The position numbers and the translations under genes were made by a program. DNA of 62,752 bases, taken from the NCBI GenBank assembly GCA_043758875.1, contig JAYVMR010000020.1, positions 1-62,752 of the forward strand. Direction: 5' to 3'. This DNA is from Candidatus Nomurabacteria bacterium (GTDB lineage: Bacteria; Patescibacteriota; Minisyncoccia; Phycocordibacterales; UBA9973). Shown one piece after another: positions 8,939-42,626 of this stretch (position 1 is the stretch's first letter; the number at the start of each line of letters is the position of its first letter). The notes under the pieces were generated by a model, which did no database searches, was not told the origin of the DNA, and was given only the letters and a program-made list of their open reading frames with translations.

Positions 8939-8974
8939 TATATCTATTTGCAATAGCGGCATTTCTTCGTTACT

Positions 8975-9775
8975 ATGCAGCTAATGGCAAAATACAAAGA
9001 TCCTTCGACTGCGCTCAGGACAGGTGACAAGGTATATCTCTATGGCAAGCACGCCTTGTGCGAAGCCGTCATGGCAAAACCGGCTTGTATTCAAAAGGTC
9101 TTTTTGGACGCGAATGCGGAGGGAGACAAGGAGATCACCTCACTGCTGAGCAGTCATAAGATCGCGTTTACGCCGATGAAGCAAAATGCCGCGGCCTCTT
9201 CGGTCGGCAATGACGCTGTCCATCAGGGAGTCATTGCGGTCATCAATACGGAAAAATTATACACACCATTGGATGAAGTGATGAAGTTGTTAGATACTTC
9301 CTCTCCTTCGCTGCGCTCAGGACCTGCGGCGTGCTTCGTCTTGCTCGACGAATTGCATGACCCGCACAATGTCGGCGCCATCATTCGTAGCGCCGCGGCA
9401 TTTGGCGCGCATGCCATCCTGATGCCCGAACACAATCAGTCGCCAATCACCGGCACCGTTATCAAGACGTCCGCCGGCATGGTCTTCCGCATTCCCATCG
9501 TCAAGATCGGCAACGTCAATCAAACTGTGCGCTTGCTCAAGGAAAAACGCATGTGGAGCTATGGCTTGGTCATGGACGGCGACACGACATTGAAAGCCGC
9601 CGAGTTCGACAGCCCGACACTGATCATTGTCGGCAACGAGTCCAATGGCATTCGCGAAAAGACATTGGAACTGTGCGATATCAAACTGACCATTCCCATG
9701 AGCCCTGATTGCGAATCATTGAACGCATCGGTCGCCGCCTCAGTGGTGCTGTACGAATGGAGCAGAGGGAAGTAA
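8975..9775 (+). CDS. rlmB: 23S rRNA 2'-O-ribose methyltransferase, SpoU/TrmH family (RlmB-like)
   Basis: LDELHDPHNVGAIIRSA, IVGNESNGI and LNASVAASVVLYE SPOUT motifs; N-terminal substrate-binding-like domain. Confidence 0.82.
   Translation: MQLMAKYKDPSTALRTGDKVYLYGKHALCEAVMAKPACIQKVFLDANAEGDKEITSLLSSHKIAFTPMKQNAAASSVGNDAVHQGVIAVINTEKLYTPLDEVMKLLDTSSPSLRSGPAACFVLLDELHDPHNVGAIIRSAAAFGAHAILMPEHNQSPITGTVIKTSAGMVFRIPIVKIGNVNQTVRLLKEKRMWSYGLVMDGDTTLKAAEFDSPTLIIVGNESNGIREKTLELCDIKLTIPMSPDCESLNASVAASVVLYEWSRGK
9001..9021 (+). repeat. Dispersed ~21-nt palindromic element, copy 1 (inside rlmB)
   Basis: tccttcgactgcgctcaggac, translated as PSTALRT in the N-terminal extension. Confidence 0.7.
9304..9323 (+). 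repeat. Dispersed palindromic element, copy 2 (inside rlmB linker)
   Basis: tccttcgctgcgctcaggac; one-base deletion relative to copy 1; translated as SPSLRSG. Confidence 0.7.
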
Positions 9776-15400: not shown

Positions 15401-16402
15401 AATGTCGATTATGAAATGATCGGTGATGAAAAATTCGCTTTCTTGCCCAGCGGTCCGACCTATACGATCGTCGATCACGCGCAAGCCGTCGGCAGCTATG
15501 ACATGTATATCAGTCACAGTGATGATACTGATACCATCACCAAGGAATCTTATTTTGGCAACGTTGCCATTACGGAAAAAAGCATTGGCACGGTCATGGT
15601 CGGCCCAGGCATCACTGACTACACGATCAGTATGGATGATAATGGTGACGGAGTGGAGGATCGTTCGATCGCCCCATCGTTGCCGGGCAGCGATACCGTG
15701 ACTCCGACGCCCACACCAACGCCGACACCTACTCCGGACCCTGTGCCGACACCGATTCCTCCGGTAACAATTCCGCCTTCTGACCCTATTCCTCCCATTC
15801 CCACTCCTTCGACAAACCCCATCCCGGTTGTAACTCCGACTCCTGCCCCTTCGACGGATTCGACAAGCTCACCGCAGGCTTCCGCCGGGCAAGTCATTCC
15901 TGTAGCACAATCCAGCACGCCGCAAGTGACGCCGGTCATAGTGAACAATATCAGCAACCCGGTCATGTATAGTGATACGACCACGGCTGATACGGCAGGT
16001 GATACCACGTCGCCTACACCTGAGACAACCAGTGATACTGCTATAGATAATACTATCGACACTACTGCCGATCCGGCTACGGTTGACGATTCTTCTGTTA
16101 GTAGCGTAGATAGCTCTGGCACTTCGGGTACCCCTGATCCCACTGATATTGCCGCAACTGATCCTGTTGATACGATTACTCCTTCAGCCGATACCACGAC
16201 TGCCTCTCAAGATAAGGTACTTACCAGCGTCGCCGATCGCTCGGCTCAACCGGAAGGGTCGCCACTCAGCGAACTATTGGCATTGCCATTGGCAGCCAAT
16301 GTCGGCAGTGCTTTGGTCGCCGGACAAAAAATGCTTCCTCTCATTGGTATGGTTCTTATATTCTTCATTATTGTTGCAGTATTCATCAAAAGACGCGGCT
16401 AG
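12485..16402 (+). CDS. Giant surface protein: signal peptide, beta-helix repeats, LCAT/PGAP1-like lipase domain, Pro/Thr linker, C-terminal TM anchor
   Basis: 1305 aa; repetitive Gly/Asn/Thr-rich beta-helix-like region; PIIIVPGITGS...YDWRLS...IIAHSMGG (GxSxG); TPTPTPTPTPTP; C-terminal LIGMVLIFFIIVAVFIKRRG. Confidence 0.8.
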   Translation: MQVSIKSKIVLIIIIVLSVRFFTSTTVAFASIPLPNIWTDATLDAATVYTVDGTSIVQPSATLTIPAGTQLIFTPGSSLVVKGALIANGTSDSHISIVGGPIPPFIPVAIPFAALTASAPSDTQSPEVSTLALSQSPDVAPLVINSVMMGADTPAVGKHSGIVFGAGSTSSLQYVDISNGLYGAVVSEGSVVTMDHVTISDCDTGILGVRGSLQLTNSAFNHIAIPVSWDFHGPFTHSDTTFSDTGLKGWIYGGELQAGDTMRLDSTDGEYEIPYVTVGQSASLVISPGVTIKMIDRQGVSIDTGGILSAIGTADQPIVFYGDGVCQYHSSIIYQAQSSATYQYVHFHDLCGGVGGTNHSTIVLSHDSFDVIAGIVVQMSDYSTLAIDDTVFHDIYQVVKLTDISKGIISNSAITLVNAGDPALYALNQSSLTITDSSIDTATTCLNVSQNGALVADHITLTHCGAAAINSSNTNGTTNPTGITLTNSEIAHSGTALQLGSALVLDVSHNTFHDNIRGVSLANMPATTLINNGWGNDSGPTIADNPTGTGDIIYSDNVPSVIYRPWIGMTPPPEHNPIIIVPGITGSFLSKDYGDGDELWPNIPKMILSPTDSFLNDLKLLQAGVPSSVRPVKVGDIIRSVGSTDVFAGMIQSLQQTGYTEGTDLFVLPYDWRLSNTQNQALLDDAIANALAKSGKSKVNIIAHSMGGLLVKDYIAQHPAAPLDHLFYIAVPHLGAPKAFKTLMYGDTMGFDFSVGPVHIPFLSADRVKTIVQNMPSAYELLPSQRYLDTISPYVTDLTQTPSALTLDAINTLMINDGRNEKMFPMAQALHDATDTLTTPSVASYDFAGCGATKTVSGFRLTATLKHRLSYAAGDGVVPVQSATAASDATQYYVTSASHSTMPSVAEVQNAIVDILNAKNVTASATLSADSHHCALSGDIVEVHSPVTLDIYDDVHRHTGPTASGEIEQNIPNVDYEMIGDEKFAFLPSGPTYTIVDHAQAVGSYDMYISHSDDTDTITKESYFGNVAITEKSIGTVMVGPGITDYTISMDDNGDGVEDRSIAPSLPGSDTVTPTPTPTPTPTPDPVPTPIPPVTIPPSDPIPPIPTPSTNPIPVVTPTPAPSTDSTSSPQASAGQVIPVAQSSTPQVTPVIVNNISNPVMYSDTTTADTAGDTTSPTPETTSDTAIDNTIDTTADPATVDDSSVSSVDSSGTSGTPDPTDIAATDPVDTITPSADTTTASQDKVLTSVADRSAQPEGSPLSELLALPLAANVGSALVAGQKMLPLIGMVLIFFIIVAVFIKRRG

Positions 16403-35623: not shown

Positions 35624-36877
35624 ATGAAATACTTTTTACCGCTCTTTTTTGGCGTCTTGTTTTTGCCATTGATCGCTTTTGCCGATGTGAAAATCAATGA
35701 AGTGGCTTGGATGGGAACCACTACGAGCAAATACAGCGAATGGATCGAACTTTATAATGACAGCGACACCGCAGTATCGCTGGCCGGATGGAAATTATAT
35801 AAGACCGGGGACAAGACGCTCTTCACGCTCAGTAAAAGCATTGCCGCCAAGGGGTATTTGCTGGTACAGCGCACTACCGCCAAAACGGCCGGCGCTTTTC
35901 CCGATATCAACGATGAGGCCGGCAAGTTTGGATCGGGGGGATTGAACAATGCCGGTGAAGACCTGACCTTAAAAGATGATCATGACACCGTCATCGACAC
36001 GCTGGCATTTGCCAGTGGGTGGCCGGCCGGAAATGCCCACAGCAAAGACACTATGCAATGGAACGGGCAACAGTGGATCACTGCCCCTGGTACTCCCGAT
36101 GCCGCAAACGCGACCGTGGACCAAGGCATACCAAGCGCTCGACAATCTGCGTCTGTCGCCGCCGTTGTAACTAAAAAAACCGTTACTAAAAAAGCTGCCA
36201 CCGCCAAAGCAACAAAAACTGCTGCCAAAATAAAATCGGCGCTCACTGTCACGGCCGCTAAAGATGTTTTTCAAGGAGTGCGCAATGAATACAGCGCATC
36301 GGTTACATTGCCTGATGAATTAAAAACAGCGCAAGGATATTTCTATTGGAATATGGGAGACGGCACGACGTATACCCAGAGCACCCTGTCGCCACTGAGT
36401 TACACCTATCGGTATGCCGGTACGTACACGGCCAGCCTTTCTTATTTTTCTGCTCCCGCTGCTTCTCAGCCGGCTTTGCAAGATACTGCCACCGTGACGG
36501 TACGAGTTCCGGCAGTGACCCTGGAAACCATATCCAATGGTGCGGCGCTGCAAATGACTAACGATACTTCCACTGCCATGGATATCGGTCAATGGCCCAT
36601 TGTCACCACGCAGGGGATCCGCGCTATGCCGTTATTGACTATTATTTCTCCCGAATCTCACATCACGGTTACCGCGCAATCATTGGGGTTGCTAGCGATA
36701 CAACATCCGGTGTTGAGTACTCCGGATGGAACGATCGTGCCCTCATCGCCCATTAAGAAAACCACCGTTAAGGCTAAGAAAAAAACTAAAGCCAAAGCCA
36801 AGACCAAGACTGCTAAAAAGAAGAAGTCTAAAACAAAGAAGAAACAGGCCCTTCGACAAGCTCAGGGCCAAAAATAA
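35624..36877 (+). CDS. Secreted lamin-tail-domain (LTD) protein with PKD-like domain and Lys-rich tail
   Basis: Signal peptide; VKINEVAWMG...SEWIELYNDSDTAVSLAGWKLY (LTD); YFYWNMGDGTTY (PKD-like); C-terminal KKTTVKAKKKTKAKAKTKTAKKKKSKTKKK. Confidence 0.8.
   Translation: MKYFLPLFFGVLFLPLIAFADVKINEVAWMGTTTSKYSEWIELYNDSDTAVSLAGWKLYKTGDKTLFTLSKSIAAKGYLLVQRTTAKTAGAFPDINDEAGKFGSGGLNNAGEDLTLKDDHDTVIDTLAFASGWPAGNAHSKDTMQWNGQQWITAPGTPDAANATVDQGIPSARQSASVAAVVTKKTVTKKAATAKATKTAAKIKSALTVTAAKDVFQGVRNEYSASVTLPDELKTAQGYFYWNMGDGTTYTQSTLSPLSYTYRYAGTYTASLSYFSAPAASQPALQDTATVTVRVPAVTLETISNGAALQMTNDTSTAMDIGQWPIVTTQGIRAMPLLTIISPESHITVTAQSLGLLAIQHPVLSTPDGTIVPSSPIKKTTVKAKKKTKAKAKTKTAKKKKSKTKKKQALRQAQGQK
36848..36868 (+). 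repeat. Dispersed palindromic element, copy 3 (last codons of the LTD gene)
   Basis: gcccttcgacaagctcagggc, translated ALRQAQG in a different frame from copies 1 and 2. Confidence 0.65.
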
Positions 36878-42604: not shown

Positions 42605-42626
42605 ACCCTGAGCGTAGTCGAAGGGT
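42605..42626 (-). repeat. Dispersed palindromic element, copy 4 (intergenic, inverted orientation)
   Basis: The reverse complement acccttcgactacgctcagggt matches copy 1 at 19 of 20 core positions. Confidence 0.7.

Follow-up and report, generated by a model that had tools for sequence, protein, structure and literature searches.

How did two short palindromic segments come to be translated within the rlmB gene of a Candidatus Nomurabacteria bacterium? The gene (positions 8984–9775, plus strand) lies on a contig of 62,752 nt (JAYVMR010000020.1), here called the window, which belongs to a Patescibacteria genome of 590 kb in 33 contigs with 46% G+C and about 90% coding sequence (G000). Its product comprises SpoU_sub_bind (residues 21–92) and SpoU_methylase (residues 121–260) domains (Pfam, 137.5 and 33.3 bits). 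A preliminary description of the window reported four copies of a ~21-nt hairpin-forming palindrome, two of them inserted in frame in rlmB. Our analysis confirms that observation and supports the interpretation given to it. Both rlmB segments are recent insertions of one 24-nt unit each, without target-site duplication. We favor the reading that a miniature DNA repeat, non-autonomous and from a nuclease-linked family, inserted there as solo copies. The full-length form of this family, present in three phyla, consists of the same hairpins in inverted orientation around a single-domain GIY-YIG gene of about 100 codons.

Two insertions of 24 nt in rlmB

The first copy, CCTTCGACTGCGCTCAGGACAGGT, occupies positions 9002–9025 (or equivalently 9001–9024) on the plus strand and encodes PSTALRTG, codons 7–14 of rlmB, N-terminal to SpoU_sub_bind. 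This numbering takes ATG 8984 rather than 8975 as the probable start, because a TACTAT –10-like box (8971–8976) ends 7 nt before it and the N-termini of the orthologues (MAKYKD..DKVY) agree; such a start also matches the pattern of short leaders at other places of this genome. The second copy, CCTTCGCTGCGCTCAGGACCTGCG, at positions 9305–9328 on the plus strand, is likewise 24 nt long and encodes PSLRSGPA in the linker between the two Pfam domains. It belongs to a second subfamily, TTCGCT-N-CGCTCA, which is also present in other genomes of the genus, and does not represent a damaged TTCGAC copy. Each insert thus amounts to eight codons in frame, and both sit at tolerable places, as had been proposed. 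The repeat described at first is real, but the inserted unit measures 24 nt rather than about 21.

Native RlmB sequence can be told from insertion by comparison with orthologues, and both segments are missing from 23 of 23 orthologues of the same genus. Further relatives (P0002–P0007) were drawn from a large protein collection. P0002 (locus L350, 93% identity) has an exact eight-residue gap at the N-terminal site and a PSLRSG copy at the linker site. At 88% identity, P0003 (locus L351) has both sites empty, as do P0004 and P0007 (84–86%), and P0005 and P0006 (84%) have an empty N-terminal site and PSTSSGQ-type copies in the linker. Since P0002 has the linker copy and P0003 has neither, the linker copy was acquired first and the N-terminal copy after the split from the 93%-identical relative, a stepwise gain from P0003 through P0002 to G000. 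A few codons have been gained and lost around the linker copy since its insertion. At the N-terminal site, the DNA alignment with the 93%-identical relative (A2) reads AAAGA[TCCTTCGACTGCGCTCAGGACAGG]TGACAAG, with 24 nt inserted; the junction is ambiguous by at most 1 nt (one T) and there is no target-site duplication.

In the 93%-identical relative, the DNA immediately upstream of rlmB (L350:2395–4134) contains genes for a large serine recombinase and for several cargo-like products. The window has a polysaccharide-deacetylase-like gene in that place, and synteny therefore breaks directly upstream of rlmB.

The repeat unit is a short hairpin with a constant loop

The 24-nt unit consists of a stem of 2–3 bp of free sequence, a constant loop TTCGAC-N2-3-GCTCA of 13–14 nt, the complementary arm and a tail of 5–6 nt, which occurs as CAAGC, CAGGT or TAAA. 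The first T and the last A of the constant loop prolong the stem. The two cleanest insertions have the register NN-TTCGAC-NNN-GCTCA-N'N'-N-CAGGT, which makes 24 nt, and units with a 13-nt loop have the register NNN-loop-N'N'N'-CAAGC. Five of the six reading frames of the unit, as read from the sequence, are free of stop codons and the remaining one holds a TGA.

The ends of the copies had been described as covarying in the manner of a hairpin, and the complementarity is borne out, though over a short stem. Among 56 TTCG-N2-8-GCTCA loops in G000, 25 are flanked by at least three Watson–Crick pairs. Shuffling of the right flanks yields 6 on average and 15 at most (2000 trials), and when the partner is slid by 1–3 nt, the number falls to 0. 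In an alignment of 24 copies (A3), stem positions 1 and 2 are C:G in 20–21 copies and G:C in 3–4, with both sides swapping together, and position 3 is C:G in 15 copies and T:A in 9. The T of TTCGAC and the A of GCTCA can pair in every copy, and from position 4 of the stem onward pairing is inconsistent. The hairpin is therefore just 3–4 bp around a loop of 11–12 nt. Folded as DNA, the two rlmB copies reach only –1.2 and –1.4 kcal/mol (z +0.8), no better than shuffled sequences, and the copy at 36847 reaches –5.7 kcal/mol (z –2.3).

No target-site consensus emerges from three clean junctions and the nested copies (left flanks GAT, TAC, GAC and AAG), and the clean junctions show no microhomology in their flanks. 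Relative to GC skew, the orientation of the copies splits 18 against 7, with very small skews and copies that do not count as independent cases. Rfam contains no family that matches the repeat.

Copies in the window and across the source genome

All four copies listed in the preliminary description are present where it placed them, and a fifth, nested one was overlooked. The third copy (36847–36869, plus strand) reads GGCCC-TTCGACAAGCTCA-GGGCC and lies in an LTD-like gene (35624–36877), where it is translated in a different frame from those in rlmB, as ALRQAQG, nine codons before the stop. It is located in a Lys-rich C-terminal extension of 40 residues that is absent from the orthologues in five relatives, which end about 40 residues earlier. 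The orthologue in genome G005 (L228, contig C13) has a decayed copy, CCCTTCAACTACATTCAGGGT, between the stop codon and the terminator. The fourth copy, ACCC-TTCGACTACGCTCA-GGGT, is intergenic (42605–42626, minus strand) and is the top match, at 39.7 bits, of a covariance model (R1) built from alignment A3. The overlooked copy is a double one of 48 nt (15846–15893, plus strand) in a Pro/Thr-rich coding region of a large beta-helix/LCAT-like protein. Here the inner 24-nt unit, GGATTCGACAAGCTCACCGCAGGC (15856–15879), has been placed directly after the TTCGAC of an older, decayed outer copy. The same 48-nt composite also occurs at C4:10526 and C15:10641, three loci in all. The region of the copy at 15859 cannot be aligned to relatives at the DNA level, and no empty site was seen there. 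For the pattern CCTTCG-N5-GCTCAGG with at most one mismatch, the window gives 2 matches where 0.08 are expected.

The abundance of the repeat in the 590 kb of G000 exceeds chance, with 21 matches to CCTTCG-N2-7-GCTCAGG and 29 to TTCGAC-N1-5-GCTCA. About 25 copies are intact. With a cutoff of E ≤ 0.01 the covariance model returns 34 matches, and with E ≤ 1 it returns 45, including copies in which the "constant" blocks are mutated. Roughly 20 of the 25 good copies (about 80%) lie within open reading frames. In our census, 11 copies in open reading frames are read as P-S-T-x-S-G-Q, 2–3 as F-D-x-x-Q-G, 1 as L-R-Q-A-Q-G, 5 in antisense frames (PELVEG or LSVVEG) and 0 in the frame that contains the stop. 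Most coding copies are translated as a small polar peptide, P-S-T-x-S-G-Q, and are located in housekeeping proteins, at the termini or within loops and linkers. The host genes include those for leucyl-tRNA synthetase (LeuRS), a second class I tRNA synthetase, TsaD (twice), LepA, FolD, PriA, a Xer-type recombinase, G6PD and a PfkB kinase.

Comparison with five relatives reveals the length changes at these coding sites. The class I tRNA synthetase on contig C11 has exactly eight extra codons in G000, with CGTTCGACTTCGCTCACGGCAGGT between TAC and AAA, and FolD also has eight (an N-terminus of 37 residues compared to 29); these two insertions are in the same register. TsaD is longer by 7 codons at one site and by 10 at the other, the Xer-type recombinase by 7 and LepA by 14. 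All 12 coding-sequence sites tested are empty in the sister species (G017). In another genome of the genus, G007, the loops that bear the repeat in G000 contain other extra segments, SSSAEATADEAGPR in TsaD (L196) and VKS-DDHAT in the class I tRNA synthetase (L200), and these loops are recurrent sites of length change.

Could the repeat be a cis-element under selection, a regulatory RNA or DNA hairpin or a protein motif, and not selfish DNA? In favor of such a function, its loop sequence is constant across phyla, and a number of copies are placed after a stop codon and ahead of a terminator. Against it, copies are found in either orientation, are read in five frames and reside in unrelated proteins; close relatives lack them, and the "conserved" blocks have decayed in copies at the same sites of relatives. 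Together with the poor folding of the rlmB copies and the absence of an Rfam match, this leaves a selected function highly improbable in our view.

A pan-bacterial family

Within a set of 51 genomes of the genus (G-numbers), the subtype with CC/GG stems ranges from no copy, in 25 genomes, to 21 in G000, the maximum; the reversed pattern, used as a control, gives 2 matches over the 51 genomes. Counts with the covariance model are 34 in G000, 17 in G005, 11 in G022, 10 in G007 and 1 in the sister species G017, and 24 of the 51 genomes have no match. In a sample of 250 genomes of the phylum, 113 have at least one CC/GG copy, and up to 46 copies are found. A scan of species-representative genomes for an exact 18-mer returned at least 120 stretches, from more than 20 phyla. 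Among the matches listed, the base that precedes the 18-mer is C in 85 of 89, and the tails CGAACGG, TGAC, ACCG and CAGGC recur after it; the matches are therefore members of the family and not chance occurrences. Several cultured strains have many copies: Microbacterium mangrovi 109, Microlunatus endophyticus 59, Sphingobium indicum 53, Sphingopyxis sp. HIX 32 and Henriciella marina 27. At least 120 viral contigs carry the repeat as well, some of them as tandem arrays. The repeat is thus a member of a very widespread, pan-bacterial family of hairpin repeats and is not specific to one clade. We found no paper that contains its DNA string or any of six peptide scars, in a literature search that left the sequences of SDR1-8 (see below) outside the comparison.

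Two of the viral arrays have periods of 23 nt (L298:4019–4130, which is followed by an inverted copy) and 21 nt (L289:7865–7903). Unit length therefore varies by lineage, with 21, 23 and 24 nt, and 30–36 nt in Actinomycetota.

A GIY-YIG nuclease gene lies between inverted copies

Repeat arrays in Microbacterium led us to a gene of 124 codons that lies between inverted arrays and encodes a GIY-YIG protein. The domain is recognized by Pfam (PF01541) only, NCBIfam returns nothing, and the best matches in the PDB are the UPF0213 proteins 1zg2 and 1ywl. In a sample of 61 Microbacterium genomes, seven have close homologues (E ≤ 1e-35), and all seven are rich in the repeat (17–109 copies). In 7 of 7 cases minus-strand copies lie to the left of the gene and plus-strand copies to the right, within 13–200 nt, regardless of the strand of the gene. 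At a threshold of E ≤ 1e-30, homologues occur in 8 of the 17 genomes with at least 10 copies, compared to 0 of the 44 with fewer.

The same layout recurs outside Actinomycetota. Of 30 GIY-YIG loci examined in Sphingobium, 13 have the repeat on both sides and another 4 have it on one. Stems vary by locus (GGC, CAT, TCC, CGC, CCC, CAC) and the loop is constant. A typical unit consists of a 28-nt end, 9 nt, the ATG and 100 codons, with the stop codon adjoining the other 28-nt end. In the sample of 250 Patescibacteria genomes, the repeat flanks each of the three best homologues. It lies on either side of the gene in G233 and G136, on one side in G290 and, as judged by coordinates, on both in G143. 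Repeat copies are found in 77 of the 128 genomes of this sample with a homologue and in 36 of the 122 without one (odds ratio 3.6, phylogeny uncorrected), and of the 18 genomes that hold 10 copies or more, 17 possess a homologue (odds ratio 18.5, likewise uncorrected).

On these results, the leading candidate for the mover of the repeat is the small GIY-YIG nuclease. By analogy with the published Ssn nucleases, the enzyme or a relative of it would recognize the hairpin on single-stranded DNA (ssDNA) and may drive the copying of solo 24-nt units in trans. We searched 1.3 Mb around 160 random copies, in genomes and on viral contigs, and found no GIY-YIG gene there, although the positive controls worked. 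Most copies are therefore solo, and any action of the nuclease on them is in trans.

That result is also among several that weigh against assigning the repeat to the nuclease. No copies flank the only homologue in G000 (C24:2623–2868, 82 residues, 41% identical to the Microbacterium protein), the orthologue of which occurs in 44 of the 51 genomes of the genus irrespective of repeat load. The enzyme behind the 34 copies of G000 is therefore one that we infer rather than observe. Five of 11 repeat-rich Microbacterium genomes have no homologue, where a gene located between arrays may be unassembled. The co-occurrence figures, here and for the Y1 genes below, are raw values that ignore kinship and are thus uncorrected for phylogeny. 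A nuclease alone does not account for a seamless insertion of 24 nt. Moreover, site occupancy departs from the species tree. At the LeuRS site, G007 has a copy too and G005 a decayed one; the LepA insert is common to G000 and G005 only, among the relatives compared; and the decayed copy next to the LTD-like gene of G005 corresponds to the third copy of G000. Targeting of hot spots, seamless excision or allele exchange could each produce this pattern. Finally, the copy in PriA causes no net change in length compared to G005 and G017.

Several of these points would suit a mechanism without a dedicated enzyme, in which units spread by templated repair or template switching during replication, in the manner of gene conversion, and GIY-YIG genes merely attract or tolerate the repeats. 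The PriA copy substitutes for a loop instead of lengthening it, non-sister species have the repeat at identical sites, and G000 has intact copies where relatives have decayed ones (in LeuRS, in LepA and at the 3' end of the LTD gene). However, the junctions are clean and free of flanking microhomology, and the strict inverted layout around one gene family in three phyla is hard to obtain by passive accumulation. Copy number in Microbacterium is in addition bimodal and tracks the GIY-YIG gene. On balance we regard such an enzyme-free spread as unlikely, and prefer the nuclease-linked repeat.

In Patescibacteria, four candidate inverted pairs of copies contain no GIY-YIG gene. One pair, with its two copies 283 nt apart, surrounds a tRNA-like sequence instead (L434:1247–1546, on contig C87 of G140).

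Relation to known repeat families

The general kind of element is already known, from nuclease-associated hairpin repeats, from palindromic insertions that are in frame (PMC10969869) and from intragenic repetitive extragenic palindromic (REP) sequences (PMC3733652). The closest parallel is the Ssn system, in which a small GIY-YIG nuclease (SsnA of Neisseria) is flanked by its cognate hairpins, NTS/SRM, and cleaves these only as ssDNA (PMC11893778, Nat Commun 2025). The authors of that work point out the similarity of SsnA and its repeats to the layout of an insertion sequence, and their main text does not mention Actinomycetes or Patescibacteria (PMC11893778). The two systems share a small single-domain GIY-YIG gene between its own hairpin repeats of 20–50 nt, tens to hundreds of solo copies, gene copies with differing repeat variants, and a non-palindromic part that gives the repeat its orientation. 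They differ in the construction of the hairpin: the 24-nt repeat has a conserved loop of 13–14 nt and a free stem of 3 bp, whereas NTS has a long conserved stem, a free loop and a CGTC tag. The SRM pattern HGTCWY..YYVSBRH..WNVSBRG..RNCYNB has 0 matches at distances of up to about 300 nt from the 37 genes scanned, flanked or candidate.

The comparison with Rickettsia palindromic elements (RPE), made when the window was first described, stands as a functional analogy. RPE are about 150 bp long, form ten families and are found in Rickettsia (summarized in PMC10969869). Like the present repeat they are palindromic, lie in frame in unrelated housekeeping genes and are translated as an extra peptide at tolerated positions; the repeat described here has 24 nt and eight residues, uses five frames and is found in more than 20 phyla among the matches listed. 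REP sequences and the paired REPIN form, with their REP-associated tyrosine transposases (RAYT), also include intragenic copies, with GTAG and CGTC tags (PMC3116915, PMC3733652). Short dispersed hairpins, solo and in inverted pairs, flanking a putative mobilizing gene and occasionally located within genes are common to both families. Here, however, the stem is 3–4 bp compared to 5–13 bp, the partner is a GIY-YIG nuclease and not a Y1 transposase, and the 24-copy alignment has no constant GTAG or CGTC tag, a CGTC start being seen in some Sphingobium stems only. Miniature inverted-repeat transposable elements (MITE) have terminal inverted repeats together with a target-site duplication and are 50–500 bp long compared to 24 nt here, and our repeat leaves no target-site duplication beyond the one ambiguous base at the rlmB junction.

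A resemblance of another sort is to the small dispersed repeats SDR1-8, which Elhai et al. are said to have described in 2008 from Nostoc and heterocyst-forming cyanobacteria as imperfect palindromes of 21–27 nt with conserved and variable parts. These reportedly insert within genes and within one another, and the enzyme is said not to be known. By that description the two are alike in size, nesting and intragenic insertion, and the present repeat is possibly one of the SDR families.

Whether the TTCGAC..GCTCA hairpin and the UPF0213-like GIY-YIG nuclease together form an undescribed pan-bacterial mobile-element system that acts on ssDNA and is also present on viral contigs is a more ambitious proposal, which we advance tentatively, with somewhat more doubt than conviction. 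If true, the 24-nt non-autonomous unit would be among the smallest mobile DNA known, and since its length is an exact multiple of three and it is nearly free of stop codons, it would keep adding eight-residue loops to essential proteins of bacteria with reduced genomes. If the nucleases cut this hairpin as Ssn enzymes cut theirs, they would constitute a new specificity class of site-specific ssDNA nucleases. The link to GIY-YIG genes makes the mechanism of the repeat testable in cultured Microbacterium and Sphingobium.

For the interpretation of genomes, the family matters in that it writes PSTSSGQA, FDKLRxxG, LRQAQG and PELVEG into thousands of predicted proteins. Spurious "conserved" segments of this origin enter the alignments of essential genes, and recognition of the repeat aids annotation, alignment and phylogeny, chiefly in Patescibacteria. 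It also offers core enzymes (tRNA synthetases, LepA, TsaD, RlmB) a way to lengthen their loops and linkers in discrete steps of eight residues.

Y1 transposases carry palindromes of their own

An alternative source of mobility is encoded in G000 itself, and according to this explanation the 24-nt hairpins would be REP-like elements moved by its Y1 transposases, of RAYT or IS200 type. The genome has two paralogous Y1/HUH genes (PF01797) of about 215 codons, at C7:17717–18491 (L032:1214–1996) and C29:18937–19676 (L031). In the genus, repeat copies occur in 16 of 21 Y1-positive genomes and in 10 of 30 Y1-negative ones, and in the phylum sample the raw odds ratio between the repeat (at least 3 copies) and Y1 is about 3, a weak co-occurrence. 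Transposition by HUH enzymes of the IS200/IS605 group proceeds via ssDNA and typically leaves no target duplication, which agrees with the insertions seen here.

The palindromes that accompany the Y1 genes are nevertheless of another family. Each of the two G000 genes carries its own perfect palindrome at four equivalent places: one copy lies at the stop codon, a second interrupts the coding sequence (at "APKL"), a third marks the start codon and a fourth is some 60 nt upstream. For the gene on C7 this is TTTGGGAGCT-N-AGCTCCCAAA, with 17 perfect solo copies genome-wide, and for the gene on C29 it is TAGGAGCC-N-GGCTCCTA. The other Y1 genes of the genus are bracketed in 17 of 17 cases by their own, different palindromes, never by TTCGAC..GCTCA, in a REPtron-like layout. 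In addition, PF01797 is absent from all 61 Microbacterium genomes, 11 of which have 33–109 copies of the 24-nt repeat, and no Y1 homologue is found in 9 of the 18 Patescibacteria with the highest repeat load. On these grounds Y1/HUH enzymes were rejected as the mover; the explanation is largely refuted, and we give it very little credence beside the GIY-YIG nuclease.

The two kinds of element do meet in one host gene. The TsaD gene that bears two 24-nt repeats also contains a copy of the second palindrome family, GGGAGCTAAGCTCCC (C11:936–950), which is read in frame as ..HLGAKLPN...

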